Part shown: positions 13,104-55,700 of the stretch, piece by piece
Position numbering within the stretch: position 1 is the first letter of the stretch
Layout: the number at the start of each line of letters is the position of its first letter
Source: an uncultured Coriobacteriia bacterium
GTDB taxonomy: Bacteria; Actinomycetota; Coriobacteriia; Coriobacteriales; QAMH01
Reading direction: 5' to 3'
DNA length: 64,000 nt
NCBI GenBank assembly: GCA_902475535.1
Contig: CABRZR010000008.1
Location: 12,217 to 76,216 of the forward strand
Notes under the pieces: model-generated
What the model was told of the DNA's origin: nothing
Database searches by the model: none
What the model saw: only the letters and a program-made list of their open reading frames with translations
Position numbers and translations under genes: made by a program

Positions 13104-13228
13104 GGTTTCTCCTTCAACATGCAGCATCCTACCCCAATCATGAAGTTTGGGGAAGATAAAAGGCGAAAAGTCGGGTAATGGACGTTCTGGACGAGTGGCT
13201 ATTCTAGACATGGCGACCAGAATAGGAA

Positions 13229-13318
13229 GGGGACGGGATGAGACAGTTGCTCAGGGACGTTGTCTCATTCGTCAGAAAATGAGACAACGTCCCTGAGCAA
13301 CTGTCTCATCCCGTCCCC
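13229..13318. repeat. double P1 element forming a 40-bp-arm perfect inverted repeat
   Basis: GGGGACGGGATGAGACAGTTGCTCAGGGACGTTGTCTCAT - 10 nt - ATGAGACAACGTCCCTGAGCAACTGTCTCATCCCGTCCCC, in a divergent promoter region. Confidence 0.9.
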
Positions 13319-13327
13319 CGTGCCCTC

Positions 13328-13873
13328 ATGTACACTGGACCCATGGAATACACGCGACATATCCACGAGATCGAGCCGGTATTCGATGGGCGCTCACGTG
13401 TCTTGCTGCTTGGCAGCTTTCCCTCGCCCAAGTCGCGGGAGCTTGGCTTCTTCTATGGTCATCCGCAAAACCGCATGTGGAAGGTGCTTGCTGCGGTGAC
13501 GGGCGAAGACGTGCCACAGACTGTTGCCGAGCGCCGCGCTTTTCTGCTGCGCAACGGTATCGCGATGTGGGATGTGCTCGCCAGCTGTGCCATCAAGGGC
13601 GCATCGGATGCGAGCATCCAGGATGCCGTTCCCAACGATTTGTCGCGCGTCCTCGACACGGCGCCCATCGAGCGCGTCTACGCGACGGGCGCAAAGGCGC
13701 ATGAACTCTATCGGCGCTACTTGGAGCCCGTATATGGGCGAGAGTGCACGCGCCTGCCTTCGACGAGTCCGGCGAACGCGGCAATGGGACTCGACGAGCT
13801 TATCGAGGCGTACCGGGTGATTTGCGAAGTGAGAACGCCGCGGCTGCGACGCGCAAAAATGGCCAATGTCTAG
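13328..13873 (+). CDS. uracil-DNA-glycosylase-superfamily enzyme, DNA-deoxyinosine (hypoxanthine) glycosylase type
   Basis: The product contains ..VLLLGSFPSPKSRELGFFYGHPQNRMWKVLA..TSPANA, the family-6 UDG pattern. Confidence 0.7.
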   Translation: MYTGPMEYTRHIHEIEPVFDGRSRVLLLGSFPSPKSRELGFFYGHPQNRMWKVLAAVTGEDVPQTVAERRAFLLRNGIAMWDVLASCAIKGASDASIQDAVPNDLSRVLDTAPIERVYATGAKAHELYRRYLEPVYGRECTRLPSTSPANAAMGLDELIEAYRVICEVRTPRLRRAKMANV

Positions 13874-14062
13874 GGTCAGGGGCATGCAAACGCACAAAAA
13901 TAGCCGATGTCTAGGGCTGCTTGAGAGCAAAGGCTAGACATTCGAGATTATTGCGTATCAGAAGTGTTGAGACGCTAGACATTTGCCGTTTTTGCGCGGG
14001 AAGCGCCGAAAAAGCTTTGGCCAGGCCGCGCAAATCCTAGACACCTGCGGTTTCCGTGCACG
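13851..14062. repeat. cluster of five ~24-bp repeats (GCAAAAAyGGCnAATGTCTAGGG), two forward and three inverted
   Basis: The forward copies are at 13851-13875 and 13891-13916. The inverted copies are at 13932-13955, 13973-13998 and 14036-14062. The cluster lies between convergent genes, and copy 1 encodes the last codons and the TAG of the glycosylase gene. Confidence 0.75.
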
Positions 14063-14077
14063 TATGGTGTCGCTGGC

Positions 14078-15337: not shown

Positions 15338-15417
15338 GCTCGGCTCCTTCATCGGAAATCGCAGCCCTATGATACAGCGATTGCGGGATACGGATGAATG
15401 AGACAAGTGACGCCCAT

Positions 15418-15530
15418 TGTCATTTCGAGCGAAGCGAACGAAGTGAGCGGAGTCGAGAAATCCCGATCTTTGGCAGCGACGGGTGAGATTTCTCCACTCC
15501 GGCGCTTGCGCGCCTCCGGTCGAAATGACA
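15418..15530. repeat. foldback repeat, family FB (complete A unit + spacer + B unit)
   Basis: TGTCATTTCGAGCGAAGCGAACGAAGTGAGCGGAGTCGAGAAATC ... GAGATTTCTCCACTCCGGCGCTTGCGCGCCTCCGGTCGAAATGACA. The terminal inverted repeats are TGTCATTTCGA/TCGAAATGACA. Confidence 0.9.
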
Positions 15531-15539
15531 GGGGGCGGC

Positions 15540-40250: not shown

Positions 40251-41741
40251 TTAGCGATGGTAGTACGCGCGGCGCTCGAAGACGGGCTCGCAGCAGACGT
40301 TGATGCCGAGATTTGCGTAGGTTTTCTCATCTGTCGAGGAGATGATGACCGAGAAATAGGCATCGCAGCCGCGTAGGGCCTCGGTTGCATCGATTGCCCT
40401 CTGGGCGAGAGGGTCGGTGGCCGAGCTAATGGAAAGGGCAATAAGTGTCTCATCTGAGTGAAGACGCGGGTTAATGCTGTGCAGATGCTCGGTCTTGAGA
40501 TGGCAGATGGGCTCGAGGGCCGCATCACTCACGATATAGGTGCTGTCATCGATGCCGGCCACAACCTTGAGGGCGTTGAGCAGGAGCGATGAGGCAGCGC
40601 CAAGGAGCTCCGAAGTCTTGCCGGTGACGAGCGACCCATCGGGAAGTACCAGGGCGCCAGCGGGTAGGCCCGAGACTTCAGCTTTGGCGAGTGCGGCCTG
40701 GTGAGCGGGGGAAAGGTCGACATCGACACCCGCGTCCTTCATGAGAAGTTCGAGCTTGCCGACCTCCTCTTTGCCGGTGCCGACGCGTGCGAGCTGCTCG
40801 CGGGCACGGAAGTAGCGGCGTACGACCTCGTTGCGGGCTGCATCGCTGCAGACCTCATCGTCACAGATGCAATTGCCTACCATATTAACGCCCATATCGG
40901 TGGGGGATTGGTAGGGGCTTTCTCCCAGGATGCTCTCCATCATGGCCTTGAGCACGGGAAATGTCTCGACATCACGGTTGTAGTTGACGGCGATGCTCCC
41001 GTAGGCCTCGAGATGGAACGGATCGATGATGTTGTTGTCCTCAAGATCTGCCGTGGCGGCCTCATAGGCAATGTTGACCGGGTGCTTGAGCGGGAGGTTC
41101 CAGACCGGGAAGGTCTCGAACTTGGCATATCCGCAGGTGACGCCATGCTTGTTCTCGTGATAGAGCTGGGAGAGGCACGTTGCCAGCTTGCCGGAGCCCG
41201 GACCAGGGGCCGTGACGACGACAAGCGGGCGTTCCGTCACGATGTAATCGTTTTTGCCAAAGCCTTCATCGCTCACGATATGCTCGATATCTGACGGATA
41301 GCGGTCAATGACATAGTGACGGTAGCATTTGATGCCCATGGACTCCAGGCGGCGTTGATATGCCTCTGCATGGGGCTGGCCGGTGAATTGCGTGATAACG
41401 ACGCCGCCGACGAGCAGGCCCATCTCGCGATATACATCCATGAGACGCAGAACATCCTCGGAGTAGGCAATGCCGATATCTGAGCGATGCTTATTGCCCT
41501 CTATATGATTAGCGTTGATCGCAATGACGACCTCTGCATCATCGGCCAGGGTCATGAGCATGCGGACCTTGGAATCAGGCTCGAAACCAGGAAGCACGCG
41601 TGAGGCGTGGTAATCGTCGAAAAGCTTGCCACCGAATTCGAGATACAACTTGCCACCAAATTGCGCAATACGCTCCCTGATGCGAGCGGCCTGCATTTCG
41701 ATATACATGTCGTTGTCGAATCCGATGTGCATGCCATACAA
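40251..41741 (-). CDS. DUF1846 / UPF0371-family protein
   Basis: The 496-aa product reads ..MHIGFDNDMYIEMQAARIRERIAQFGGKLYLEFGGKLFDDYHASRVLPGFEPDSK.., matching the conserved N-terminus of this family. Confidence 0.8.
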   Translation of the reverse strand: MYGMHIGFDNDMYIEMQAARIRERIAQFGGKLYLEFGGKLFDDYHASRVLPGFEPDSKVRMLMTLADDAEVVIAINANHIEGNKHRSDIGIAYSEDVLRLMDVYREMGLLVGGVVITQFTGQPHAEAYQRRLESMGIKCYRHYVIDRYPSDIEHIVSDEGFGKNDYIVTERPLVVVTAPGPGSGKLATCLSQLYHENKHGVTCGYAKFETFPVWNLPLKHPVNIAYEAATADLEDNNIIDPFHLEAYGSIAVNYNRDVETFPVLKAMMESILGESPYQSPTDMGVNMVGNCICDDEVCSDAARNEVVRRYFRAREQLARVGTGKEEVGKLELLMKDAGVDVDLSPAHQAALAKAEVSGLPAGALVLPDGSLVTGKTSELLGAASSLLLNALKVVAGIDDSTYIVSDAALEPICHLKTEHLHSINPRLHSDETLIALSISSATDPLAQRAIDATEALRGCDAYFSVIISSTDEKTYANLGINVCCEPVFERRAYYHR

Positions 41742-42228
41742 CCTTCCACTCGAAATTTTTCATCATCATACACGACAGCCGAGACACGAAAAGCAGAGCG
41801 ATGCATTGAATCGGTTGGCGCGTCTCCACAAGAATCCACAAGAAAAGTGACCAAGATATTTTGGCAGAAATTTGGGTCTAACAGAGTGCCAAACGAAGGA
41901 AGATTTCCGGCCCCAAAAAACGAGGCTTCAGAATCGCGCCTGTGGCACTTTTAGAGACTGATTAGCATCGAAACACAGAGAGCAGTCAGAGGGGCTGAGA
42001 AGGCAGTATTTTGCACGAGAGAGCGAATTCAAAATCTGGAAGCAATAAGAGAGAATTTGAAAGCAAAATATTTAGCCCGTACCAGTTGAAGATATGTTAT
42101 TAAGTTGCATAAATAAGGAAATTTGAGAGTGACAGAAAGATCCATGTGGAAAAAGACGGGAGGCCCGAATTATCTGATTTGGAAATAAAAAATTATCAAT
42201 AAATAGATAATCAATATATCCGAATTTG

Positions 42229-43090
42229 AGATAAAGAACTATCTGAGAACAGAATAATAGAGCATATGAAGCCTCGTATTATTAACTGGCACCAGTTAAT
42301 AATACGAGGCTTCTGTTCATTATTTCGTATCAAGAATATATAATTATCAAAATTAAGATAAAGAAAATTAAATCGAGCAAAATTTGTGTTGAAGCAAAAC
42401 TATCCAAATATGAGATAAAACATTATCTAAACAATGAATAGATTAATTCTGATTGGCAAAATATTGATTCTCAGGTGAATTAACTATTAATCAGATAAAG
42501 ATTTATCAGAAGAAGGAATAATAAGATCGGACGAGAAATCAAAATCGGAAAGAGAAGAATCAGCGGGTACCAATAAAAAATATGCATTGTTTTAATCTAG
42601 ATTAGAGATAAAAGAGTTATCTAAAAATCAGTTAATGTTATATCTACAAATAAGATAAAGAATCCTCAGTTGATGATTTTCGCGAGTTCGAAAATACAAA
42701 CGGGAACAAATTGGAATCCTGTTGAAAAAGTCTGGAGGCTCTCTGAGGCACGAGAATCAATTTTGAGCCGTTTTAGTCTCTGCGAAGTCTGTGAGTCCGA
42801 GATGGTTTTCCAGAACGTCTTGAGGCCCAAAATAATCGCTCAAATTTTCAATGCCCAAGATCGAAATTATTATCTGTATTGTGAATAAAGATTTTCAGAA
42901 AATGATTGGATCTGATTTTTCGTTCCTCCTTCGAAACTTTATTATATAAACAGATAAAGATGGCCTGAATCAAAAGTATGGCAAATTAACTCAAATTTAG
43001 ATAAAGATTTCTCTTCAAACAAGCTTTAATAATTCTGCATTGAGAATAATAAAGGAACTCTATCTTAATCTTATTTAATGATAAAGTCTA
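42229..43090 (+). repeat. iteron-like array of nine same-strand AGATAAAGA-type motifs
   Basis: Exact AGATAAAGA occurs at 42229, 42356, 42493, 42653, 42952 and 42999. Variants occur at 42413 (AGATAAAAC), 42606 (AGATAAAAG) and 43079 (TGATAAAGT). One more exact copy lies at 46338. Several extend to AGATAA-N4-5-TTATCT palindromes. Confidence 0.75.
42268..42313. repeat. perfect 22-bp inverted repeat with a 2-nt loop
   Basis: GAAGCCTCGTATTATTAACTGG-CA-CCAGTTAATAATACGAGGCTTC, verified base by base. Confidence 0.9.
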
Positions 43091-43511
43091 ACAGGGTTGT
43101 CCGAAAAATCAGGAATCGAGTTGTGATCGAATCATGAATCGGCTGTTACCCAAACTCTCCATTCACGATAAAAAATCTTTGCGGAAATCTGCTAGAAACA
43201 CTCAAAAAATTAGGATAGCTATCGCGGGATTCAGCCCCCAAAACAAAGGCCTTAGAAGGGCTTAGAATCGCTTGTAGATATACCGTGAAAGCAAGCATCG
43301 ATTTTGTATAGAAAAATGTATATATTGCCTGATAAATCGCTGATATCATCAATTTGCTAACCAGGAGATAACACAGCTAAATCAGGCGTTAGCGCGGCTA
43401 CTGAATCACCTTCGCTATGCGTCTTGGAAATTGGGCCGTGAGAACCACTCAGAAGCCACAGAAAGCGTCAAGCTATCAATTTGTATTTTTTATAGATTTG
43501 CGTATATCACT

Positions 43512-43522
43512 TGGTATATAAT
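43512..43522 (+). promoter_or_regulatory. candidate extended -10 promoter (TGgTATATAAT) for the RHH gene
   Basis: Read from the sequence about 70-85 nt upstream of the RHH ORF. No good -35 box was found. Confidence 0.25.
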
Positions 43523-43590
43523 CTCAAAGACTTTAGATGAGTCAGATCGTCTAGTTACTCGCCAAGAATGTTCTCAAAAATGTAGGTTAG

Positions 43591-43845
43591 GTGGTTGAGT
43601 TGAGTTCAAAAGTCAAACAGGCGAACTTCCGTTTACCCCTCGAGTACATGTCGATGATTGATGATTTCGCGCATCGCGAAAACATCACCAAGGCGGCTGT
43701 CATCACCCGCGCCCTGGATTGCATGCAGGCATCGTACGACTCGGGTAACAACGGAATGCCCGTCACTGATTCCGGTTCGGGTATTTCCGAGCAGGAATTC
43801 AACGATCTTAAGAATCAGCTGAAGCAGGCGGAGGAGCGCGCGTAG
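43591..43845 (+). CDS. ribbon-helix-helix (CopG/Arc/ParG-like) DNA-binding domain protein, terminated by TAG 43843-43845
   Basis: The product reads ..KVKQANFRLPLEYMSMIDDFAHRENITKAAVITRALDCM.., a beta-strand/helix/helix RHH pattern. The start is GTG 43591 or TTG 43600 (after AGGTGG). Confidence 0.6.
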   Translation: MVELSSKVKQANFRLPLEYMSMIDDFAHRENITKAAVITRALDCMQASYDSGNNGMPVTDSGSGISEQEFNDLKNQLKQAEERA

Positions 43846-44508
43846 GCCGCAGAGCAGCGTGCGAACGACGCCGTTTTGGCTCGCGATGCCGCCGAGGCGA
43901 AGGCTCGCGAAGCGGTGGCGGATGCAAGCGTCGCAGCCCCCATCGTTGCCGCAGTCAACTCCGTTTCGGACGACGAGATCGAGCGCCTCAAGGCACTGGT
44001 TGCCAAGCAGGAGGCAAGCCTCGAAGAGAAGACAAAGGCACTTGCCGCCAAGGAAGCCGAGGTTGCAGCAAAGGAGGCGCAGATTGCCGAGCGCGACGCT
44101 CGCATCACGTCTCTGAGCGAGCAGCTCGGTGCGGCAAATGCCAAGGCTCAGCTGGCCGCCACCGCTCAGACCGTGAGCGTCGCACCCATAGATGGTGGTG
44201 GTTCACCCGGAGAAGATTCAACCCGTGCGCTGACCATGCTTAACATGCTTGGCGGTGTCATGGGTGCATTCCAGCAGCAGGTCGACGACGCTCGCCAGGT
44301 GGGTGAGCAAGAAGGCCGCTCGGCTGTTCAGAAAGAGCTCGAGGATATGATCAATAGGGCTCGCAACGATGGTTATCGTGACGCAATGACATATCTCGAT
44401 GACCGTGTCACAACCGCACGTGAGTCTGGGGCCAAGGAGGAAAGAGCACGTATCGCCAACATGGGATTCTTCGAACGCCGCCGTTACCTCAAGATTCACT
44501 TAGCCTAA
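43846..44508 (+). CDS. Ala/Glu-rich coiled-coil protein in the same frame as the RHH ORF, directly after its TAG (possible second half of one gene)
   Basis: The frame is identical to 43591 (43876-43591 = 285). The sequence across the stop reads AEERA*AAEQRANDAVLARDAAEAKAREAV..AKEAEVAAKEAQIAERDARITSLSEQL. No ATG occurs near the 5' end, and the track uses TTG 43876. Confidence 0.5.
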   Translation, partial: AAEQRANDAVLARDAAEAKAREAVADASVAAPIVAAVNSVSDDEIERLKALVAKQEASLEEKTKALAAKEAEVAAKEAQIAERDARITSLSEQLGAANAKAQLAATAQTVSVAPIDGGGSPGEDSTRALTMLNMLGGVMGAFQQQVDDARQVGEQEGRSAVQKELEDMINRARNDGYRDAMTYLDDRVTTARESGAKEERARIANMGFFERRRYLKIHLA

Positions 44509-44575
44509 AGGAAGCATCAAACACACACCAGGTTTCACCACTTACCACGACTTCCGCACTTCCCTTACAACCCTC

Positions 44576-44613
44576 CAGCGACTCCGGATCCACCTACCGG
44601 GGTCGCTGTTTTT
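44576..44613 (+). terminator. rho-independent terminator (CAGCGACTCCGG...CCGGGGTCGCTG + TTTTT)
   Basis: It has a stem of about 11 bp, a 9-nt loop and a T-run at 44609-44613, about 70 nt after the coiled-coil ORF stop. A second hairpin ATGCCTGC-N14-GCAGGCAT + TTTT follows at 44614-44647. Confidence 0.6.
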
Positions 44614-44695
44614 ATGCCTGCAAACGCTCAAGGCGGCAGGCATTTTTGCTGTCAAAATCCTGCGCTGCTCGGGTCGCCGTGGGTGCTCGGGGCAT

Positions 44696-45019
44696 GAGAT
44701 TTCTCCACTTCGGCGCTGCGCGCCTCCGGTCGAAATGACAAGGGGGCGGGCTGCGTCCCGTGCTCGAAATGACGGGGAAGCGGGTCCCGCTCGTGCTCGA
44801 AATGACAGGGGAATGGGCTGCGTCCCGTGCTCGAAATGACGGGGAAGCGGGCCCCGCCCGTGCTCGGAATGGCAGGGGAGCGAGTCCCGCCCGTGCTCGA
44901 AATGGCAGTGCGGCGGGATCATTTTGATTGCTTGCGAAACGCGGATTGATGGCGAAATGGAGGGGCGGTTTTTGTCATTTCGACCGAAGCGAGCGTAGCG
45001 AGCGGAGTGGAGAAATCTC
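44696..45019. repeat. family FB composite: B unit + five tandem 33-34-bp units + inverted A unit
   Basis: GAGATTTCTCCACTT..GGTCGAAATGACA spans 44696-44740. The tandem units span 44741-44773, 44774-44806, 44807-44840, 44841-44873 and 44874-44906, each ending GTGCTCG(A/G)AATG(A/G)C. TGTCATTTCGACCGAAGCGAGCGTAGCGAGCGGAGTGGAGAAATCTC spans 44973-45019. Confidence 0.9.
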
Positions 45020-46656
45020 TCACGCCGCGCATCCGAAAGGGTTCTCGAAGCGTTTGGGAACACCACTTTTTGGTTCGCGTCGGTGACTCGATACGATAAT
45101 TGACTGGTACCAGTGATAGCGAAACGAGACGTTCTGGGCGGAAGGAAAATGAGAGTCGAAACGGTGATAGTGATAGGTCGATTTTAGGGTTTGCGAGTGC
45201 CTGATTTTGCTACTCACGAGAGGGCTGGGAAGCTGATATTTCGATGAGAATGTCGGTCAGTTGAGGCGTGCGAATGGGGCCGTGGCTTCTGTATCGGGAG
45301 CCGATTTTGAATCTAGGATTATGATGCGACGCCGCCAAAATCAGCTCATTATTTGAGCGATTCATGATGGAGAGCTGAAGCAAAATTGGCGGCGCGGGAG
45401 AATCGTGGAAGTCTGCCGAGGCTCCCGCGATTTCGTCTCAGGTTCCGCGCCAGCAAGTTTATGAACCGATTTTATTGGAGCGGGGGTTCCGCGCCTTGGC
45501 GCGGAGATGCGCGCTAAATTGCCGCGCGATGCCGTGGTCGTTTTTTGGAGCGCGGCGAGGCATACGGAGGATGGATTAGGGCGTGTGGTTGGTTGGTGGT
45601 TTTCGGGGGTGTGTTGGTCGTTGACGCGTGGAGAATATGGCTGTTGGGCACCATTGTCTTAGGGGTGGCTGCTGAACCGAAATGACCAAGATACTTGAAG
45701 TGAATAGGGAGGGGTAACGCGAGGCGCTATCTTGGTCTGGTGATGAGGATCCAAGGGGATTGCGATAGGTCGGTTGGTGCGTCTGGAGAAGCCCGAATTG
45801 AGTTGAATCGCTATAACGAATTGCCTCAAATGAGGAGAGGGTTGGGCGATTTCAGCCGAATCGCTATATGCAGAACGCGGTTTGGGAATGCGTGATTGGA
45901 TTTTTGGGAACGTGTGGAGGGATGGATGGGTCGCGTAGGTGTCTCCTAGAGCTGTTTTTGGCTCTGCAGCGAACGGCTTGGCTTCCTTGCGCAGCGAGGA
46001 CGAAAAACGATGCGTCAGAATCGATTCTAAGGCGTTTTGCCCGTATGGCAGGTATCCGAATGTGCCAGAAGAACATAAAAGGGCTTAAAACGCCTTAAAA
46101 TGCGCCAAATGTCTCCCAGGCTTGATTTGGAAGCCTTGGATGAGAATTGAGCGGCGCGAAAGGGGTTTCGAGCCCAATCTGGACCCCGATTCTCCTTCAG
46201 GGGAATCCAAATCGGACCGAAATCACGAAAAAGGGCCTCGATGCATAGTAGCGTCAGAATTGTCAATCATTTTTTCGCAAAGAGAGACGAGCAACTCAGA
46301 GAAGATAAGAAAATCCGTGCGAATATATCTAGAAATAAGATAAAGAATTTGAATGTTTGGCTGGTGAGGGCGCGAAAAATGCGCAATTGGTTTCGTGAAG
46401 AACTTGCCAACCAAATGTGGAGGAATTGTGAAGACGAAAAATAGTTTTGAGCTTGGGTTTTGCTTGCAAATGGCTAGAAATGGCCAAAATTCAACCCTTG
46501 CTGCTACCAAAATGCCTTAGCAGTCTAATTTACGTGTTTATCCAGGAGTTCTATAGACACTCTATACAAATGTAGCGCAAAAGCTATGTAATGCTTGCAG
46601 GGTGGTAGAAGCTGCTAAACCCGCAGGTAGATGGCACAATTGCCAAAGTTTCTCGC

Positions 46657-46685
46657 TTGCAAGGCAAAACGCGATTTTGTACATT
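46657..46685 (+). promoter_or_regulatory. candidate sigma-70-type promoter of the giant gene (TTGCAA-17 nt-TACATT)
   Basis: The hexamers lie at 46657-46662 and 46680-46685 with a 17-nt spacer, 32 nt upstream of ATG 46718. Confidence 0.35.
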
Positions 46686-46717
46686 GCGCATGCCGGTGAG
46701 TGAGGAAAGTAATACGA

Positions 46718-49700
46718 ATGATCCAAAGCAACGAAAATATCTTTCGCGATGCACGTGCGTTACGCGCGCGTGCGCGCGTTATATATATGGTCGTTGCAGC
46801 GATCTTCCTCAGTCTCACCATTTCGGCAATTTCCGCCACGGTTTTCACCCCCGCCGCTTTTGCAGACGATACGCTCCTGGTTGCCCAAAGCGCCACGAGC
46901 GATGATGCTGTAAACGCGGGCGCGGATGATTCCGCCGGCACTCCTGTTGACCAGGCGATTCCTGGCGCGGAAGGTGGAGATTTCTCGACTCCGCTCACCG
47001 CGTTCGCTTCGCCCGAAATGGCAGGGGAGGGCGCTGTTGCCGAAAATGGCGCGGAAGACTTCTCCGAAGATGCTTCTGACCAGCAGATTTCTGGCGCGGA
47101 AGATCAGTCCGGGGAGCCGCTGAACGGCGAGGGCCAGCCTACCGAGAATTCGGCCGAGGAGACGGCCGACGAAGATCCCGCCGTCACGGAGAACGTCGAG
47201 AATCCCACCCCCGAAGAAACCACTACCGTTGAGGAGGAGACCACTCCCGACCAGGTCGACGTGCCTGGCGTCGAGGAGCCCGAGGAACCGAACGCCGGGG
47301 TCTATGGCCCGGTGCGTTATCTGGCCGCTGCATCTGCCCCGGTCATTGCGCCTGCTGCAGGCACCAATGCATTCTCGGACAACGCAAACATCACCTGGGA
47401 GTACAAGAATCATGTGCTGACGATCACCGCCGGTGGCAGTGACAAGCAGCTCACGACTTCCCTGACCGGATCGAACCTGCCCTGGCTTACCTCGACGACG
47501 AGCGCTGTCAGCCGTGCCGACATCCATAGTATTAAGTTCGTGGCCAATGGCTCGGGTGGCAAGGTCGCCCCGCTGGACCTGACGAGCTGGTTTGCTGATT
47601 ACACGGCACTCACCACCATCGACGTGACCAATCTGGACGTCTCCAAGGCCGTGAGCTTCGACAAGATGTTCCAGAACGCGAAGGTGCTCACCACCATTAC
47701 GGGTATGGAGACCTGGAAGACCGACAGCGGCATCTCGTTCCAGGACATGTTTGCCAACGTCGAGAAGCTCGAGACCCTCGACCTTTCGGGAGTCTATACT
47801 GCGACAGGTTCCGGCAGCAATGTTGCTGACGGTACCGAGAAGAATAGGCTCGACATGTTGGCCGGCATGAAGTCCTTGCGCACCATTACATTGCATCCTG
47901 ACACCGCGCTGACCGATACGGGCATCGAACGCATCTCCTCGCGCAATGACGACCTCGGTTACTGGATGGCCACGCGCGTCGTCCAGGGCGAGATCAACGT
48001 CTGGCAGGGCAAGCCCTCCGAGCTGATCCAGCGCTGGGGTACCAACGGTGCGGCGGACAACGGCCTCAAGGCGAACTTCACCCTCAACTTCTTCCCCGAG
48101 GGTTACTTCACTAGTAATAGTGCAATCAAGTGGTCCTACAACTGGAATCGCAAGACGCTCGAGATCGAGCTTGATCCGAGCATCGCTCATACGGACTTCG
48201 CCGTCACCGAGACCGCCAGCCAGCTGCCCTGGCTGCGTGCCGTTCCGAGCGACCTCATCAACATCATCACCTTCCACGAGACGATCGACGGCACTAATAC
48301 ATATAAGATGGTTGCACCCGCATCGATTGCGAACTGGTTTGCCGACTACGTCAACCTGAGCGTCTTCAGGGGTTCCGGCCTCGATGTCAGCAACGTCACG
48401 GACTTCAGCGGTCTGTTCAAGGGCTGCATCAACGCCGCGAACATCGACATGACGGGTTGGGTCATGGGCGCGTCGGCAAACATCTCCGAGATGCTCGGGG
48501 ACTGCCGCTCGCTCAAGACCATCACCGTCTCGGATACCACGCGCATTGCCGGTGCCGGCCTGCTCAACATCTCGTCGATGAACAAGGCCAACGGCGTCTG
48601 GGAGCGCTACGACGACAAGGGCAAGGTCAAGGATCCCTGGTTTGGCACGACCGACAACCTCGAGCGTCGTTACAACGGCACCATCCTGGGCGCTGCCCAC
48701 GGCGATGCCACCTATCGTTTCAACACCATCCTGCGTGGCGGTCGTTTTGACAACGACAACACCTGGTGGAAGTTCGACAACGTCAACAACATCCTTTCCA
48801 TCGGTGCCGACGATGATGAGGATGGCGAGACTCTGGGCAAGCTCATCAGCGAGACCGCCAGCGCCAACGGCACCCGTTACATGCCGTGGCTCGAGCAGGT
48901 CGATGGTCAGCCCATCGTCACGATACGCAACGTGGAGCTGATCAAGACCTATAACGGTGCCCAGCCTGCTGACATGTCCTATTGGTTCAAGGACTTCGTG
49001 AAGCTCTTCGACTTTGACGGTACCAGTCTGGACACGAGCCAGTGCGTTGGGTTCACGGGCCTGTTCATGAACGATGTCAATCTTGGTGGCATCAACAATG
49101 GCGTTCTCGACATCAGCTCCTTTGACATGAGCCACAGCATGAGCGCCAATCGCGCCGACATGTTCAAGGGTGTCAACAAGTTGCTTAATATCAAGCTGGG
49201 CCCCAAGGTGCAGCTCATCGGCTCCGGTCTGGACAAGCTCGACCTCCATGACCAGACGAGTGGTACCTGGGTGCGCAAGGGCTCCGATACCGACTACTGG
49301 ATCGGCACCTCCGCCAGCTTGCTGAATCGCTACGGCAACGCCGCTTCCGAGGGCGCCGCCCTGGGCGAGGCCGCACTCTACTTCTGGGATGTCACGTTGC
49401 TGCGCAACGTCTTCCAGTCCAATGGCAACATCTGGTGGGAGTATGACTCCGATGCCGCAATGCTGCGCATCGGTGCCACCAACCCGAGTGGCAACGTCAC
49501 CATCACCGAGCGCCCCGACCCCGTCAACGTGCAGAACGACCAGCCTTGGCTGCTCGTCATCGGCAAGGCCGCCGGTAGCGGCGAGCCCGCCCGTGCCCTG
49601 GGCCGCTCCTCGATTCGCTATATCGTCTTCGAGGACAAGCTCCACATGCTGTATCCGGCCGACTGGTTCAAGGACTACGTCAATCTCGAGAACCTGCGCT

Positions 49701-52700
49701 TTGCCAAGGGCATGGACTTCACGGGTGCCACGAGCCTCGCGAACTTCTGCGCCAATTGCACGGCAATGCACACCATCTCGGGTATGGGCAACTTCACTAA
49801 TACTACGGGGATCACCTCCGTGGCCCATATGTTCGATGGCACGAGGTTTGCCACCTTGGCCGGCGTCGATGTCTTCGACACTTCCAACGTGACGGACTTC
49901 AGCTACTTCCTCGCCAACAACACGGTACTGCGCACCTTCGACAAGGCCGCAGCCTGGAACACCTCCAAGGGCACCAACTTCAGCTACTTCTTCTACAACA
50001 ACCGCTCCCTGTCCACGCTCGACATCTCCGGTTGGGACATGAGCAAGGCGACGACCGCGAGCTCGCGCGAGAACTTCCTCGCAGGTCTCAATTCGCTCGA
50101 GATGCTGTTCCTGGGCGACAAGATCATCCTGACCAATTCTGGTCTGGGCGACGCCACGCTCGCCCCGGATCGTGCCCAGGACAAGGGCAGCTTCCAAGCC
50201 AGCACCTTCGATCCCTCGACGGCCACCAATGCCAGCGTGACCCACAAGTGGCTTGGCCCCTCGGCCGACCTCGAGCGCCGCTATCCGGTCACCAGCCGCA
50301 ACTACGGGAGCAACTTCCTCTACGAGTGGAGGGCCCGTAACTACTCCGGCCGCTTCAGCGATGCCAACGGCGGTGACATGGCCTGGTGGAAGTACGATGC
50401 CGTCACGGGCATGCTGACCGTGGGCACCGACACCACCAATCCCATCCAGCTCGCCCTTGACCCGACCGAGGCCGAGGCCGCCTGGATTCCCGTCATCGAC
50501 GCCATCTACGAGGCCGAGAACCAGTACGACGGCCTGGCCAACGTCAAGTCCTTCGTCGCCGAGGCCCTCAACGGTAACCCGACCATCCGCCTGTCGGCCT
50601 GGAGTCTCGCGAACCTCTTCGCCACCTATTACACCGGGCTCACGAGCTTCAACGGCGCGGGTCTGGCAACGGACCTCGTGATCAGCCTCGCCTCCATGTT
50701 CGAGGGCTGCGACTCGCTCGTCAGCTTCACCGGCGTGGAGAACTGGGACACGGGCAAGGTCACCACCGTAAACTCCATGTTCAAGGACACCAAGAGCGCC
50801 ATCCAGATCGAGGGCACCCAGAACTGGAACACTTCGGCGGTCACCGACTTCTCCTCGATGTTCGAGAACGCCACCGGTGTCGAGAGCATCCTCAACATCG
50901 GCACCTGGGACGTCTCGGCGGGCACGACCTTCGAGAACATGTTCAATGGTGCCACGAGCCTCAAGTACCTCAACATTGCCTTTACCCCGGCTGCCGGTGG
51001 TCACATGAACGTCGCGGCCAACCGCAACGGCATGCTCGCCAACGCACCGGCCATCCTCGAGCTCACGGTCGGCAACAACTCCTACCTGGCCGACACGGGC
51101 ATCGATGACAACCACAAGTCGTCGCGCGGCTCCTGGGAGCGTCGCGACGAGTCGTTCACCATCGTGTGGTTTGGCACGACGAAGAACCTCATGGTGCGCT
51201 ATCCGGTGTCTGACCCGGCAAGCGACCTGGGCGTCGTCAAGTACACCTGGGAAGAGGGCACGCTGCGCGGTCGCTTCACCAACGAGAACGCCTGGTGGCA
51301 GTTCACCTACACCGATGACGAGAAGACCCATGGTGACCTCATAATCGGCCTCATCGACACGAGCACCGGTGCCGACCACGTCATTACCGAGACGGCTGCC
51401 GAGCTGCCCTGGGCCGACGCCTTTGGCGACAACAGGGTTTCGGCCATCACGATGCAAAACGGCGTCACCTTCGTGGGCAACAACCTCGAGGGTTGGTTCG
51501 AGAACTACACCGCGCTCGAGCACTTCGATGGCACCAGCATGAACGTCAGCGGCGCCACGAGTCTCGCCAACCTCTTCAAGGGCGATGACAAGCTCATCGT
51601 CGTCGAGGGCCTCTCCAACTGGAGCGTCCACAACGTGCTCAGCTATGACTCGATGTTCGAGGGCTGCGCATCGGTCACCTCCATCGACGTCCACGGCTGG
51701 GAAATGAACGTCAACGCCACGCGCGTCAACATGTTCAAGGGCCTCGATTCCATCATCTCGCTGTACCTCGGCCAGTACATCAGCCTCGAGGGCACCGCGC
51801 TGTTCGATTCCGACACGCGCAACGCCACCATGGGCTCCTGGATGCGCGCCACCAAGGACGCGGACGCCGTGCTCTATGCCGATGATCCCTGGTTTGGCAG
51901 CTCCGATGACCTCGTACGCCGTTACGAGAACCCTGCCGGCAACGACCACGGCTGGAAGAACACCGACACCTATGGTGCCTACTATTACTGGCAGACCGGC
52001 GTGTTCCGCGGCCGCTTTGGCGAGAACGACAACGCCTGGTGGTCCTATGACCGCGGCACGCTGACCTTTGGCATGGACCTGCCCGAGGTGTGGTCGAGCG
52101 AGAACACCGTCGAGCCCGTCGTGACCGACCGCTCCATCTACGAGGCCGACACCATCGACCATGAGACCGGCAAGGTCGTCAAGGGCGAGCACAGCTCGCA
52201 GCTGCCTTGGGAAAAGGCCTCGAGCGTGGACGGCATGTTCAACGCCTGGACCGACGTGGTCTCCGTCACGGCGCAAACCACCGAGTACAACGGTGTCACC
52301 TACAAGATCAACCCGCGCAACCTCTCCTTCTGGTTCAAGGACTACAAGGGCCTCAAGAGCTTTGATGGCGTCAACATCAACATGAAGTCCGACGAGCAGT
52401 CCTTCGAGTCGCTGTTCGAGGGCTGCACGAGCCTCGCCGTCCTCAACTTCTCCGGTTGGGAATGGGATGGCGACATGGAGCGCACCAACATGCTCGCCAA
52501 CCTGCCGGCGCTCTCCAGCCTCACCATCAAGCGCGTCGTGCTCGAGGGCACGGGCCTGGGCCTCGATGTGAACGGCAAGGAGCTTGCCGCCCGCGCCGCC
52601 AACGTGGGCCGTTGGGTCATGGACAACAACATCGTCCATGACGTGCCGTGGTTTGGCCCCACCGCCAAGCTCGTGAGCCGCTACGACGTGATCCTGTCCG

Positions 52701-55700
52701 TCGCCATCGACGACGAGCACCTGTACACCTGGGACTCCAAGTACGCCGGTAGCCGCGTGGACAACAACCCCAATGCCTGGTGGATCTTCTCGCTGGTCGA
52801 TGACGAGGAGAACGACGTCAAGAAGGGCACGCTCATCATGGGGTCGGATGCCAGCGAGGATCGCGACATCCACAAGTCCGGTACGGCCACCTTGGTGGAC
52901 GGCAAGATGGAGTACAGCGGCTCCACCCTGCAGTGGGCGCTGTCGCCGGGCACCACGGTCGTCAAGACCGGCACCCTCGACAACATCGTCGAGATCACCG
53001 AGGACCTCATTGCCGGCATCCCCAACATTGCGGCTGTCAAGCATGTCAGCACCTTCTCGACTCTGGTTCCGCAGGACACGATGCTCGGCTGGTTTGCCAA
53101 CATGGTGAACCTCGAGAGCTTCGACGGCACCTTCCTGGACGTCTCCCATGTCACCAACTTCAACGGCCTGTTTGCCGGCTGCAAGAAGCTCGCCTACGTC
53201 AAGATCGGCAACTGGATCATGCATGATGCCGGCCGCGATGCCGACGTCACCGACATGTTCCGTGACTGCCAGTCGCTCTACAAGCTCACCGTGGGCAAGG
53301 GCGTCGTGCTCTCGCAGGCTTCCGGCCTCAGCGAGACGCTGACGAATCGCGAGCCCGACAAGGGCACCTGGATCTACAACCTGTGGTTTGGCTCCTCGAG
53401 CGACCTGGCCGACGACTACACCAACGCCGGTGTCTCGAGCGCGGCCGACGCCCTCTACACCAGCGGCTCGGTCGTCTCGACCGAGATCACCTACACCTGG
53501 GACGAGGGTAACCTGGGTGGCCGCTTCCCGAGCAACCCCAACGTCTGGTGGCGCTACACGGGCGTCGTGCGCGACGGCATGGTCGGCCTGCGCGTGGGCC
53601 TGCTGCGCATCGGCAGTGACTCCGAGGACAACAACGCCATCACCGAGACCTCCGTGCAGCTGCCCTGGCGCAAGCTGCTCAAGAACGTGAACACCATCAC
53701 CGAGGTGCGCACTGCCGCCGACGGCAGCTATCCCGTCTCGGTCAAGGACCTCTCCGGTTGGTTTGGCACCTACCTGGCCGCCGACAACTCGACCCGCGCC
53801 CATACGGGCCTGGACACCTTCAAGGGCGAGGGCTTCATCCTGGACAAGCCCGGTAACGAGTGCATCAGCCTCGAGAGCATGTTCGATGGCGCGAACAAGC
53901 TTGCCAAGGCCACGGGTATGGAGCACTGGAAGACCTCGACCGTGCGCAGCTACGTGCGCATGTTCTATGCCTGCTACGTGCTCTACGACCTGGACATCCA
54001 GGATTGGGACATGACCACGGCGCACATCCAGAACACGCCCACCACTCAGGACATGTTCCATGGCATGGGAACCTACCAGATGAAGCTCAACAGCTTGACG
54101 CTTGGTCCCAATGCCGTGCTCGAAGGCACCAACCTGTGCAAGCTCGTCGATTCCCAGCAGGGTGGTCGCACCTTCCACAACACCGGTGACGGCGTGTGGG
54201 TCATGGGCGATGCCCTCAATTCCGATGCCATCACCGGCGATACCGACACGCCGTGGTGGGACACCACCGAAGCTTTCATCGCCCGTTATGCTCTCGACAA
54301 GACCGCTCAGAGGACCGCGGCTTCTATTGCATCGCCCACCGTGGCCGCTACCGTGGCTCCGCCTGCTGATCTCATCCACAAGTACGTCTGGAATGCAGGC
54401 ATGCTTGGCGGCAATTTTGAGAGCAACGCCAACGTGTGGTGGAAGATTGACCAGGAAACGCGTGATCTCACCATTGGCGTGCACAACAAGGACCTTTGCA
54501 ACGTGGTGACTGAGTACAACCACCTCGTCGATGGCAAGGTTGTCGACGGCTATAAACAGTACATGACTCCGTGGTACAAGATCGGCGCCGCCATCTCCAG
54601 CTTCAAGGTCGATACGAAGAACGGCAAGGTCGCTCCGCTCTCGCTCGAGGGCTGGTTCGACGAGGATTGCCTCTTCCAGGAAGGTGGTCTGGGGGGCCTG
54701 CTCGGCACTCATGCCTGGAACGCCAACAACGTCATGGACGAGTGGCAGCGCTACGTAAACGAGATGTGGATTGACCTCGATTACGAGTCCACTGCTCAGG
54801 GCGTCAAGCCGTCCGATGGCTACAACATGACCGATTCCGTGCGTCCCTACTGGGAGAGCTGGAAGTGCTTCATCGCTGCCTGGGAGTATGGTGGAAATCG
54901 CTGGGAGGGCGATGCATATAACCCCTGCGTCGAGAAGATCTTCACGCCCGTGTACCTCGAGGCCGGCGAGACTTACTATCTCTCGCTCGACTACACCATG
55001 ACCTACTATTACTGGGGCGCGGGCAACTTCGGTTTCGAGATCTACGATAACGTCGTTCCGCGTACGGGCTCGAGCCGCCTTGCCGGTGTCGTGTTCCCCA
55101 ACTACGAGTACATGAACAATACCGAGCTCAGGCACGGTTACGTCACCTACACGGCTCGCAGGACCGGCATCCACTACGTGGGCTTCAACGGCCAGAACTT
55201 CCATTGCTACAATGGTGATTGGACCTTCACCTTCAAGGACCTCTCCCTGGCCAAGTACACGAAGTTCACCTATTTCGATGGCTCGGGCCTGGACACGACC
55301 AACACCACGTCCACGGAACGCATGTTCAACAACGCCGTGTTCCTGCGTGACATCATCGGCGTCGACGATTGGGACACCACGCGCGTCACCACCATGCAGT
55401 CCACCTTCCGCAACACCAAGGTGCTCACGACGCTCGACTCCATCAAGGAGTGGAATGTCTCCAACGTCGTCAACTTCAGCCGTATGTTCGAGGGCATGCA
55501 GTCCATGGACGCTACGCTCAACCTCGACTGGGTCACCACCTCGGCCGAGGACCTGAGCTACATGTTCCTTAACAACACCTTCGTCCCCAACACCAACTAC
55601 CTCAAGCTGTGGGACGTCTCCAAGGTCACCAATTACACGGGCATGTTCAAGAACGCTTCGGCGCTCGAGGACGCGGCCGCCATCTCCGACTGGCGTCTGG

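Follow-up and report, generated by a model that had tools for sequence, protein, structure and literature searches.

The question raised by this locus is what a 5-kb, partly AT-rich island does directly upstream of a giant gene in a gut Coriobacteriia bacterium. The window analysed here is a 64-kb stretch of DNA in which the island lies between a DUF1846 gene and the 5' part of a giant surface-protein gene. At a probability of about 0.5, the island is read as a regulatory module for the giant gene whose regulator, here called RHH-CC, is repeatedly knocked out; we infer both which way the regulation runs and what protein occupies the palindrome array. The island would be a regulatory region shared roughly across a genus and built around one small gene, as part of a two-gene module of RHH-CC followed by the giant gene.

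Boundaries, composition and coding content

The island is bounded by the following features:
40251-41741, - strand: DUF1846 gene (Pfam), left flank, pointing away from the island
41742-41990, no strand: DUF1846 upstream region, with a tandem repeat and a patch conserved between species
46718-64000, + strand: giant surface-protein gene, 5' part, ATG at 46718, running past the window end

The reading frame of the giant gene runs uninterrupted through 5761 codons until the window stops; the gene has a signal-peptide-like N-terminus, the ribosome-binding site AGGAAAG and a DUF285 repeat match. Full-length homologues in related contigs have 14,254-15,435 aa (another, at a contig end, has 10,832 aa); the product is taken as a surface protein of roughly 15,000 residues. 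As the gene is on the + strand from 46718, the island is indeed upstream of it, as an earlier, sequence-only reading had stated. A 3562-aa minus-strand ORF at 46760-57448 was rejected as a shadow ORF of the giant gene, whose GC3 is 0.87. The DUF1846 gene, whose N- and C-terminal Pfam domains match at E 4e-175 and 5e-59, served as synteny anchor. Its upstream region carries the tandem TCCACAAGAA twice at 41825-41844 (TRF) and a patch of ~35 nt at 41916-41950 that is conserved in a four-species alignment.

In a computed profile, 500-bp windows outside the island have a GC of 0.608 ± 0.027 (minimum 0.506) and the island overall has 0.473. The island had been described as AT-rich. GC falls from 0.61±0.03 to 0.24-0.42 only at 41990-43600 and 46200-46717; the part between is near genome GC. 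The G+C counts quoted for two lines of sequence, 12/60 at 42181 and 36/60 at 6001 in hisD, were reproduced. The segments are:
41990-43600: GC 0.34
43600-44508 (RHH-CC gene): GC 0.58
44509-45050: GC 0.61
45051-46200: GC 0.53, GC skew +0.29
46201-46717: GC 0.42

The island had also been called essentially non-coding, which holds for ~4.0 of its 4.94 kb, where conserved coding signal is absent, and fails for 43600-44508, a real conserved gene. Six-frame comparison of the spacers 41742-43599 and 44509-46717 with three related species gave only short matches, in all frames, coinciding with spots conserved at the nucleotide level. The sole spacer ORF scanned, a 174-aa minus-strand frame in the second spacer (spacer B), had no Pfam match.

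Gene order in related species

The layout DUF1846, AT-rich array, RHH-CC, spacer and giant gene is shared by five or more related species of gut Coriobacteriia, with gene maps reading rSAM, SpoVAC-like, DUF1846 (-), gap, RHH-CC (+), gap, giant gene (+). Positions 41825-42087, 42566-42643, 42744-42834, 43038-44625 and 46413-46796 of the window are collinear with L002, L003, L083, L084 and L085. The linkage to a giant gene extends to three further loci:
L086: RHH-CC 70% identical, giant ORF next, IS200-type transposase in the same gap
L087: RHH-CC 57% identical, giant ORF next, FitA-type toxin-antitoxin pair upstream
L088: RHH-CC 49% identical and in two paralogues, giant ORF next, NikR upstream

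The giant genes of these three loci are 35-49% identical to that of the window over more than 1000-2300 aa. RHH-CC is therefore immediately 5' of homologous giant genes, on the same strand, even at 49-57% identity and with another left neighbour.

The RHH-CC gene and its product

The gene and its signals, all on the + strand, are:
43248-43599: promoter and leader; Shine-Dalgarno AGGTGG, start TTG at 43600
43493-43498 and 43512-43520: candidate promoter with -35 TAGATT and extended -10 TGGTATATA, putative hexamers read from the sequence
43600-44508: RHH-CC gene, 302 codons, split by an in-frame TAG at 43843-43845
44576-44613: intrinsic terminator, stem CAGCGACTCCGG / CCGGGGTCGCTG then T5, recognised by reading the letters

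The RHH/coiled-coil frame noticed earlier is present, and it is really one 302-codon gene split by the TAG. This is codon 82, which is CAG (Gln) in an uninterrupted ORF in relatives (window and L002 translated); TAG is an ordinary stop in this genome and ends 13/30 ORFs. Disruption here of a frame intact in relatives was thus found for RHH-CC and not for the rest of the island. Among 194 homologues none is named. Intact alleles have a dN/dS of 0.04 within one clade and 0.09 between species, and the gene is found on contigs of 0.2-1.1 Mb among housekeeping genes. Strong purifying selection acts on RHH-CC, a genuine and conserved gene of the chromosome.

The final 150 nt before the gene have a mean identity of 91% among four species, compared with 72-88% for the RHH-CC coding sequence and 88% for DUF1846. 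A TAGATA element occupies the -35 position in 6 of 8 divergent lineages, where 1.3 would be expected (P~0.001). The terminator overlaps a scan match at 44587-44604, has a folding z of -4.7 on the + strand and is inside a block 80% conserved to L002, L083 and L085.

In family alignment A1 the protein comprises an RHH-like N-terminal domain, a Gly/Ser linker, a variable coiled coil and a near-invariant C-terminal domain of ~95 aa. Its AF2 model (mean pLDDT 73.7) has an unstructured N-terminal segment at residues 1-9 (pLDDT below 50), helices at 14-27 and 31-47, and then long helices. The best Foldseek PDB matches are RHH proteins, although all at E>1, with VapB, CdbA, Arc, CopG, AtaR, MatP and AmrZ in the top list. 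Residues 5-41 of three divergent members match phrog_3887, a 'transcriptional regulator', at E 7e-5 to 4e-4; searches for Pfam and NCBIfam domains gave neither, and Pfam RHH models were silent even at E up to 10. The weak PHROG match and the non-significant fold matches suggest an N-terminus that is RHH-like. The long coiled coil and conserved C-terminal domain are atypical for simple repressors.

The palindrome array

The AT-rich spacer upstream of RHH-CC contains, without assigned strand:
42171-43086: AT-rich core, GC 0.24-0.42, with ~12 copies of the 19-bp palindrome TTATCT-N7-AGATAA(AG)
42268-42313: perfect hairpin, two 22-nt arms (inverted repeat I2, 100% complementary) around a 2-nt loop
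42744-42834: conserved non-coding patch with core GAGGCACGAGAATCRATTYTGAG

The palindromes are partly arranged in tandem units of 23-24 bp. A 20-nt palindrome pattern with ≤2 mismatches gave 17 matches vs 0.4 expected by chance, all within 42171-43086 or at 46323-46345. AGATAA/TTATCT is found 59 times where 8.8 are expected (z 13.8), 13-17 of these hexamers falling in each of four species, and both half-sites, at 60-84%, emerge in a weight matrix built on 65 instances drawn from five species. Motif density is kept across related species despite non-alignable, turning-over surroundings, and species alignments show some sites conserved in position. The arrays are restricted to the clade sharing the locus layout of the window; they are absent from L087, L088 and a clade with 58% identical RHH-CC, even though the RHH domain hardly varies. 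The array does resemble iterons, which leaves room for a centromere-like role.

The hairpin is terminator-like in both directions, was listed by the terminator scan and has a folding z of -11.3 on the + and -7.1 on the - strand; it is species-specific, as no equivalent was found in the other species. The patch is 77-94% identical to L002, L003 and L083, its flanks do not align, and frame-specific conservation was not found in it.

The upstream region of the giant gene

Immediately 5' of the giant gene are:
46320-46717, + strand: conserved upstream region (four-species alignment A3)
46326-46345: array motif, present once, at a conserved position ~375 bp before the gene
46416-46434: TGTGGAGGAATTGTGAAGA, within this region
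46529-46557, + strand: candidate promoter TTTACG-17-TATAGA
46562-46567: second CTATAC

Conservation of these last ~400 bp is patchy and includes the one array motif. Upstream of five giant genes no hexamer is more enriched than CTATAC/GTATAG (7 occurrences against 0.6 expected), and the GTATA/CTATAC boxes common to the RHH-CC and giant-gene promoters could simply be -10 elements. The promoter and leader of the giant gene itself look like only ~400 bp. The earlier suggestion of a very long regulatory region for the giant gene therefore survives in part: the linkage of RHH-CC across lineages with differing upstream flank and the conserved ~400 bp with its array motif favour it, but the extent is not 5 kb.

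Natural inactivation of RHH-CC

Among 49 natural copies of RHH-CC, 20 were scored as intact (one of these, L100, is really a C-terminal frameshift), 10 as nonsense, 17 as frameshift and 2 as C-terminal frameshift, so that nonsense or frameshift alleles make up 29/49 (~60%). At least 23 distinct disruption events were resolved in three clades, and nearly all knock-outs arose separately, each confined to one or two contigs. Of 116 copies of seven neighbouring genes, 113 are intact. Out-of-frame tails are also found in 38/120 RHH-CC cluster representatives of the protein database. Nucleotide diversity of RHH-CC equals that of its neighbours, and the gene is therefore not hypermutable.

In clades 2 and 3, 14/16 copies of the 0.9-kb gene are disrupted, whereas ~100 kb of RHH-CC-adjacent giant ORF from 14 loci is open to the locus end, with interruptions in L094 only. 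In the commonest clade (58% identity; L081, L082, L096-L110) RHH-CC sits between Zip transporter and 5-FTHF cyclo-ligase genes, and no giant gene was found within 8-10 kb of it. RHH-CC is disrupted there too; therefore what is selected may be a phenotype unrelated to the giant gene.

The regulators mucA, rpoS, lasR and agrC are repeatedly inactivated in natural or host-adapted populations. RHH-CC resembles them in being long conserved with many independent nonsense and frameshift alleles at tree tips, and differs in its gut commensal lineage, its uncharacterised protein and a very high frequency of inactivation.

Proposed mechanism

RHH-CC is a predicted DNA-binding regulator that probably regulates its own strongly conserved promoter and would control the giant gene, repression being the likeliest mode. 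Such a repressor role is suggested by the target sizes, a 0.9-kb gene being disrupted and ~100 kb of giant ORF open. Knock-outs would be selected because they alter expression of its targets. The palindrome array may be a platform for many copies of a dimeric DNA-binding protein, which could be RHH-CC or some other factor. RHH-CC could bind the array because the half-site TAGATA is also at the -35 of its promoter in most lineages; it may not, since L087, L088 and the 58%-identity clade have no arrays.

A close parallel for such a role is the autoregulated RHH repressors (Arc, CopG, MetJ, omega, AmrZ), whose operators consist of repeated subsites. RHH-CC is like them in its small N-terminal domain with RHH proteins as best fold matches, its own promoter, which is strongly conserved and repeats a TAGATA/GTATA element, and repeated short half-sites nearby. 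However, Arc/CopG-type repressors have 45-100 aa, whereas RHH-CC, at 300 aa, extends into a long coiled coil and then a conserved C-terminal domain, lacks a Pfam RHH match and has DNA binding that is predicted.

Alternative explanations

An unlikely alternative is a DNA-organising or segregation module, with RHH-CC as a DNA tether like RacA, RocS, pSK1 Par or MatP, the array as centromere-like loading site and the giant-gene linkage secondary. RacA, RocS and pSK1 Par have an N-terminal DNA-binding domain, a coiled coil and a C-terminal anchor, and such single-protein systems act on centromere-like repeats without a dedicated NTPase partner (PMC11500499). RHH-CC is likewise three-part, no ParA or ParM gene adjoins it, and in this clade the array is directly 5' of the gene, as in pSK1 par and type Ib/II par loci. 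DNA binding in the known proteins is by a MerR-type winged HTH, and RocS and Par also have DUF536 and an amphipathic helix (PMC11500499), whereas RHH-CC has an RHH-like domain, does not match DUF536 and has a C-terminal helix that, read by eye, is not clearly amphipathic. Most gene-carrying lineages have no array, and inactivation in ~60% of wild copies would be odd for such a factor. MatP, which organises the Ter region of enterobacteria through matS, is, like CdbA, among the fold matches and also combines RHH, coiled coil and palindromic sites. The matS sites are scattered across hundreds of kb, whereas the palindromes here are clustered in 1 kb. The apparent GC-skew switch at the locus is explained by giant-gene codon usage (GC3 0.87, GC3 skew -0.32), so nothing puts the locus at the terminus.

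Equally doubtful is the proposal that a general AT-preferring nucleoid protein, Lsr2-like or other, binds the AT-rich core and silences or insulates the adjoining promoters, with the palindrome as its nucleation site. The sharp drop to GC 0.24-0.42 in a 0.61 genome, beside a very large surface-protein gene, is like H-NS/Lsr2-silenced regions 5' of adhesin and virulence genes, and the array motif includes GATAAA, resembling the high-affinity H-NS site TCGATAAATT. However, the region is syntenic and vertically inherited rather than recently acquired, and the precise 6-7-6 palindrome with half-sites at 60-84% fits a sequence-specific dimer better than Lsr2.

Spacer B contains:
44649-45035, no strand: foldback of 5-6 tandem 33/67-bp units (44730-44908) between inverted arms (repeat search, TRF)
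45051-46280, + strand: G-rich, C-poor, fast-evolving spacer in which no conserved coding signal was found

The foldback is a species-specific minisatellite that varies among strains: L111 (~95% identical over the locus) is without 44649-44972 and L089 has one unit fewer. The unit was not found elsewhere in the window, and among the other loci it occurs only in the 99%-identical strain L089, as the homologous array and two stray 12-mer matches. The equivalent G-rich spacers of L002, L083 and L085 are unalignable, yet have a skew of +0.16 to +0.23 on the giant-gene sense strand. In the preferred reading too, the stretch at 44.6-46.3 kb is fast-evolving filler without sequence conservation.

That the whole island is mostly functionless filler is nevertheless very unlikely. 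It would be a recombination- and insertion-prone gap, with repeats from AT-biased mutation and local duplication and, in present-day hosts, relaxed selection behind the RHH-CC knock-outs. Both spacers are largely unalignable between species, the minisatellite differs between strains and L086 carries an IS insertion, but the motif enrichment (z 13.8) recurs in each species of the clade, some sites are positionally conserved, a dN/dS of 0.04 among intact alleles does not equal relaxed selection, and nearly all knock-outs are separate and private.

A remnant of an integrated plasmid or mobile element, as the sequence-only reading had suggested, has very little probability left. The array would descend from iterons or a partition site, and RHH-CC from a plasmid protein for centromere binding or copy control; RHH proteins are common regulators of plasmids. 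The iteron-like units of 23-24 bp, the DnaA-box-like TCCACA repeats close by (14 in the spacers from four species, against 1.7 expected) and the transposase in the corresponding gap of L086 would suit it. Against it, blastn searches of 72,556 plasmids and 50,697 phages were negative, a motif scan of viral contigs gave single chance matches only, and no mobile-element gene, rep, par NTPase, integrase or tRNA gene was found in the island of the window. Gene order is conserved in several species, motif density is held while sequence turns over, and the embedded gene is chromosomal, among housekeeping genes, with a dN/dS of 0.04-0.09.

Unrecognised structured RNAs in the spacers, also proposed earlier, or a very long giant-gene leader are highly improbable: four local hairpin regions reach z ≤ -3 (42220-42340, 44500-44660, 45340-45460 and 45980-46180, the last two in the G-rich spacer) and the G-rich, C-poor sense strand of spacer B, a poor Rho substrate, recurs in four species, but mean folding z is just -0.6, Rfam gave 0 matches at gathering score and noise alone at E<1 (tRNA searches of the island were likewise empty), spacer B is unalignable between species, so that no conserved structure is possible, an intrinsic terminator is 3' of RHH-CC and a promoter-like conserved block is <200 bp from the giant-gene start. 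The short repeats, hairpins and foldback element that had been pointed out in the island were all recovered by the repeat search and TRF.

Composition of the island

The region at 41760-46700 (the island), between the DUF1846 gene on the - strand and the giant gene, is real and unusual, but it is composite rather than a single non-coding AT-rich block. GC content in 500-bp windows outside the island is 0.608 ± 0.027 with a minimum of 0.506, and the island averages 0.473. The sequence-only reading had claimed an abrupt drop from two lines with 12/60 and 36/60 G+C; a recount of both lines agrees, and the computed profile confirms the drop. The description as AT-rich applies to the two ends, 41990-43600 and 46201-46717, but not to the segments between them (0.53-0.61), and the drop is uneven. 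The repeats, hairpins and foldback said to be dense in the island were all found. It had further been described as one non-coding block with a single open frame. The spacers indeed carry no conserved coding signal, but the frame is a conserved gene, referred to as RHH-CC. The parts of the composite are an AT-rich palindrome array, this gene for a predicted regulator (conserved, but broken here) and its strongly conserved promoter, a variable minisatellite, a G-rich spacer and about 400 bp of conserved sequence upstream of the giant gene.

Features of the island
41990-43600, segment with GC 0.34, 200-bp windows as low as 0.24
43600-44508, +, RHH-CC gene, segment with GC 0.58
44509-45050, segment with GC 0.61
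44576-44613, intrinsic terminator 3' of RHH-CC
44649-45035, minisatellite of 33/67-bp units between inverted arms
45051-46200, segment with GC 0.53, GC skew +0.29
46201-46717, segment with GC 0.42
46320-46717, +, patchily conserved upstream region of the giant gene

Hidden or decayed genes were sought in the two spacers (DUF1846 to RHH-CC, 41742-43599; RHH-CC to the giant gene, 44509-46717, spacer B) by six-frame tblastn across four species, which gave short hits only, scattered over all frames. Across the window (1-64000), cumulative GC skew reaches its maximum near 46-47 kb, in a terminus-like manner. A replication terminus or origin at the island was considered from this change of sign and rejected: one gene occupies the right half, and its codon usage (GC3 0.87, GC3 skew -0.32) accounts for the switch; the unconstrained spacers stay positive in skew, as does the left flank.

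Synteny and age of the locus

The closest relatives of the DUF1846 gene on the left flank (94-96% protein identity) are found in uncultured gut Coriobacteriia or Coriobacteriaceae MAGs. Homologous loci from four related species or strains are collinear with the island (L002; L003, cut off by a contig end; L083/L084; L085), with aligned blocks at 41825-42087, 42566-42643, 42744-42834, 43038-44625 (80-82% identity) and 46413-46796. The gene order in these relatives is a radical-SAM gene, a SpoVAC-like gene, DUF1846 (-), a gap of about 1.9-2.2 kb, a small gene (+), a gap of about 2 kb and the giant gene (+), called at 14,971-15,435 aa. Collinearity of the island extends over loci L002, L003, L083-L086, L089 and L111. 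Gene order and aligned blocks therefore identify the island as an old inherited feature of the clade and not as a strain-specific insertion. The proposal of a decayed mobile or plasmid-derived segment lacks support, as there is no plasmid or phage similarity; blastn of 41760-46700 in distant mode against plasmid and phage collections gave zero matches. Three of the four closest contigs (L001, L003, L004) stop 160-1975 bp upstream of DUF1846, at or inside the palindrome array; the array seems to break short-read assemblies.

The RHH-CC gene and its product

ORFs 43591-43845 and 43876-44508 share one frame and are separated by a TAG at 43843-43845. The relative L002 has CAG (Gln) at this position and an unbroken ORF of 312 aa. 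The start is TTG at 43600, preceded by AGGTGG. Database searches returned 194 homologues, none of them named and a few with precomputed coiled-coil-type Pfam hits. Among them, P0001 is an intact 302-aa protein with 99% identity, and P0017 is a 210-aa C-terminal fragment as expected of the window's allele. For annotation, this means that automatic gene callers split or overlook a real gene inside a “non-coding island”. The contigs that carry the gene are chromosomal and reach 1.1 Mb.

The family alignment shows four parts: a conserved N-terminal domain of about 50 aa, a Gly/Ser linker, a coiled coil of variable length and a near-invariant C-terminal domain of about 95 aa. In the AF2 monomer model (mean pLDDT 73.7), two short helices (14-27 and 31-47) are followed by long helices (64-108 and 124-193), the latter with coiled-coil-type matches in PDB and NCBIfam; no secondary structure is assigned ahead of helix 14-27, and pLDDT is below 50 for residues 1-9. 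Of the top 20 Foldseek PDB hits, 15 are RHH proteins, every one at E>1; the matches, all at E>1, include VapB, CdbA, Arc, CopG, AtaR, MatP and AmrZ. In three divergent members, residues 5-41 are matched by phrog_3887, a small family of phage “transcriptional regulator” proteins (E 7e-5 to 4e-4). Pfam gave no RHH match to the 57-aa N-terminal domain up to E 10, and nothing for fragments; sequence searches of Pfam, NCBIfam, PADLOC and PDB returned coiled-coil noise only. The RHH label is a supported guess rather than a demonstrated membership. We infer that RHH-CC binds DNA and regulates in a manner coupled to the giant gene.

Recurrent knock-outs of RHH-CC

Copies of RHH-CC that retain both end motifs, 49 in all (window 43600-44508; loci L081-L132 and L002), were classified. 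Intact copies number 20, nonsense copies 10, frameshifts 17 and C-terminal frameshifts 2, so that 29/49, or about 60% of the sampled natural copies, are broken; L100 (399 aa), although counted as intact, proves to have a C-terminal frameshift as well. Within three clades, at least 23 distinct events could be told apart by alignment, and the gene is broken almost always by a different mutation in each copy, despite strong long-term constraint. Nonsense changes convert CAG, CAA or GAG to a stop at codons 43, 73, 82, 86, 198, 240, 248 and 275, and the indels comprise deletions of 1, 2, 5, 25 and 103 bp and one insertion. Within the window's own species, Q82* is carried by the window and L119 and Q86* by L111, and L089 is intact. 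Out-of-frame tails are also present in 38 of 120 cluster representatives in the protein database.

Three other explanations were rejected. Assembly noise would not spare the surroundings, and of 116 complete copies of seven neighbouring control genes, taken from the same contigs, 113 are intact. Hypermutation does not agree with the nucleotide diversity of RHH-CC (0.033-0.049), which is the same as that of its neighbours. Recoding or read-through of TAG is contradicted by its use as the commonest ordinary stop in the window, where it terminates 13 of 30 ordinary ORFs, and by the knock-outs themselves, which include TAA stops and are mostly indels. The simplest reading is a recurrent, short-lived and selected loss of RHH-CC function. 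Among intact alleles dN/dS is 0.04 in within-clade comparisons and 0.09 in those between species; the within-clade value, set against the proportion of copies that are disrupted, speaks for strong selection in the gut, recurrent and acting over the short term. This knock-out hotspot in a conserved gene tied to the giant gene is the most interesting result of the analysis, and it was absent from the sequence-only reading.

Codon 36 has lost 2 bp, and codon 43 has changed from CAG to TAG (about 43705-43728), independently in each of two clades that are only about 58% identical to each other; these positions may be local mutational hotspots. The loci L083 and L084 share a 2-bp deletion (at about 10790) that replaces the last 28 or so conserved residues with a 162-aa out-of-frame tail.

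The giant gene and its link to RHH-CC

The island had been placed directly upstream of the giant gene, correctly: this gene lies on the + strand with its ATG at 46718 and a signal-peptide-like N-terminus, and is open for 5761 codons to the window end. A 3562-aa ORF on the opposite strand (46760-57448, -) was rejected as a gene, being an antisense shadow of the giant gene with its GC3 of 0.87. In three lineages beyond the window's clade, too, RHH-CC immediately precedes a giant ORF that is encoded on the same strand.

RHH-CC and giant genes in three further lineages
L086, RHH-CC at 70% identity; IS200-type (Y1_Tnp) transposase gene (1625-2467) between DUF1846 and RHH-CC, at the position of the AT-rich spacer
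L087, RHH-CC at 57% identity; FitA-type toxin-antitoxin pair upstream; giant gene of 14,254 aa
L088, RHH-CC at 49% identity; NikR upstream, two RHH-CC paralogues; giant gene of 10,832 aa, running off the contig

The giant genes of these loci are homologous to that of the window (35-49% identity over >1000-2300 aa). The two paralogues of L088 (7810-8685 and 12145-13068) are separated by 3.4 kb of AT-rich non-coding DNA and share a single giant gene downstream. Giant proteins of the distant loci L087 (49%) and L088 (46%) are more similar to that of the window than are those of the closest relatives, L083, L085 and L002 (36-39%), a pattern of identities that suggests fast diversification or exchange of giant-gene alleles. 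The exception to the linkage is the commonest clade (58% identity; L081, L082, L096-L110), in which RHH-CC lies between Zip transporter and 5-FTHF cyclo-ligase genes and no giant ORF occurs within 8-10 kb of it. The suggestion that the island is a very long regulatory region for the giant gene is partly supported by the linkage of RHH-CC and by the conserved sequence immediately upstream of the giant gene.

The palindrome array

In the DUF1846-to-RHH-CC spacers of four species the motif AGATAA/TTATCT occurs 59 times against 8.8 expected from dinucleotide shuffles (z 13.8), with 13-17 copies per species. A weight matrix built on 65 instances, drawn from five species, recovers a second half-site at fixed distance, and the unit is therefore a 19-bp palindrome, TTATCT-N7-AGATAA. 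With up to two mismatches, a 20-nt pattern gives 17 matches (about 12 sites) in the window against 0.4 by chance, every one within 42171-43086 or 46323-46345. The distance from RHH-CC to these roughly 12 upstream sites is 0.5-1.4 kb, and some of them form 23-24-bp tandem units. The spacer itself is mostly unalignable between species (415/1742 columns identical), yet motif density is kept; a few sites are conserved in position, one of them about 375 bp upstream of the giant gene. Arrays are confined to the clade with the DUF1846/RHH-CC/giant layout, and none was found in L087, L088, the 58% clade or upstream of DUF1846 in other genera. An exact scan of viral contigs for TTATCT-N7-AGATAAAG gave isolated chance matches and no arrays.

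Possible regulation of the giant gene

Genes for giant surface proteins (10,000-15,000 residues) rank with the costliest in bacteria, and to our knowledge almost nothing is known of their control in gut Actinomycetota. We favour the reading that RHH-CC acts as a repressor of the giant gene: it would repress the giant gene, and mutations that break it would relieve the repression. The rival reading is that loss of the giant protein is itself the advantage. The repressor is favoured because such an advantage should place mutations mostly in the 45-kb ORF. About 100 kb of giant ORF across 14 loci is open, with the single exception of L094, where the start looks interrupted (12474-15557), and in clades 2 and 3, which have RHH-CC next to the giant gene, 14 of the 16 copies of this 0.9-kb gene are disrupted. 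Against the repressor stands the 58% clade, which has no adjacent giant gene and shows the same knock-out pattern. Further weak points are the RHH assignment and the GTATA/CTATAC boxes shared by the RHH-CC and giant promoters, which may be only -10 elements.

In its fullest form, RHH-CC and the array would be a new mutation-driven population switch for a surface protein of about 15,000 residues, to which we give roughly one chance in five. A strongly conserved, dedicated repressor would be knocked out repeatedly within human hosts, every knock-out would turn the giant adhesin on or re-tune it, and knock-out lineages would be purged in the long term. Binding of the array by RHH-CC is made less likely by the presence of arrays in only part of the family's range, and for the same reason the array may be bound by another factor. 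The regulatory reading of the region is partly supported.

Several known systems resemble the locus in part. Autoregulated RHH repressors with multi-subsite operators are alike in their parts. The tethers RacA, RocS and pSK1 Par share the order of DNA-binding domain, central coiled coil and C-terminal domain (PMC11500499); they differ in having a MerR-type winged HTH, whereas the fold hits of RHH-CC (E>1) are RHH, and RocS and Par end in DUF536 with a membrane-binding amphipathic helix, whereas the C-terminal 96 aa of RHH-CC gave no Pfam hit, DUF536 included, up to E 10. MatP is similar in protein architecture, but a MatP-like placement at the terminus fails because the GC-skew signal is a codon-usage artefact. 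Plasmid centromeres are similar in having repeats upstream of a gene, and type Ib/II partition loci in having a short-repeat array adjoining the gene of a binding protein. No ORF in the island and no Pfam annotation within 10 kb of RHH-CC in L081-L088 indicates a ParA- or ParM-type NTPase, and unlike these mobile loci RHH-CC is chromosomal and has no plasmid or phage similarity. The locus falls outside the tether, MatP and plasmid-partition groups as these are defined. A target of xenogeneic silencers of the Lsr2/H-NS type would agree with the low GC of 0.34 over 41990-43600, but not with an island that is collinear in relatives rather than recently acquired by horizontal transfer. Literature searches on giant adhesins in Collinsella, on RHH, coiled coil and giant gene, on within-host evolution and on Lsr2 in Coriobacteriia found nothing on this locus.

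The locus offers a conserved, uncharacterised, predicted DNA-binding protein genetically linked to giant genes, a defined 19-bp palindrome array and, from human gut metagenomes, at least 23 knock-out alleles that arose naturally and independently. Comparison of intact and broken strains could reveal what RHH-CC controls.

Spacer B, promoters and smaller repeats

Extragenic palindromes of the dispersed REP/BIME type would have many copies scattered over a genome; the minisatellite unit is confined to its array within the 64-kb window. Of the remaining loci, L089, a strain with 99% identity, is the only one to carry the unit, and no locus from a different species has it. L089 has four copies in the homologous array, one unit fewer, and two stray 12-mer matches elsewhere in the locus; L111, about 95% identical over the locus, lacks 44649-44972. 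The adjoining 45051-46280 is unalignable between species, yet it is G-rich on the sense strand of the giant gene in all four (skew +0.16 to +0.23). The further suggestion of unrecognised structured RNAs lacks support: Rfam 15 gave no match at gathering score in the whole window and only noise at E<1 in the island, a tRNA/tmRNA scan was empty, and a folding z-score scan found local hairpins only (mean z -0.6).

The 150 nt 5' of the RHH-CC start are 91% identical in four species, compared with 72-88% for its own coding sequence and 88% for DUF1846, and TAGATA occupies the -35 position in six of eight divergent lineages. Judged by its sequence, TTTACG-17-TATAGA within 46320-46717 is a plausible promoter of the giant gene. 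A scan for sigma-70 promoters and terminators gave site numbers not above those of shuffled sequence. The enrichment of CTATAC/GTATAG at the RHH-CC and giant promoters is real, yet the boxes are located where -10 elements are expected and may be merely these.

TGTGGA/TCCACA direct repeats with a 10-11-bp phase occur upstream of both DUF1846 (41825-41844) and the giant gene (46416-46434), in the same orientation relative to each gene and kept in relatives; they could be binding sites of the response-regulator type. The sequence TGACCAAGATAYTT at 41848-41862, near the DUF1846 promoter, is kept in L002 and L085, and two further copies form an inverted pair in spacer B (45686-45700 and 45728-45742). 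An element of about 35 nt resembling GAGGCnnCAGAATCGnnnnTGnGGCnnTTTTAG occurs three times (41916-41950, 42753-42785 and 46003-46038), and two of these copies fall within patches conserved between species.
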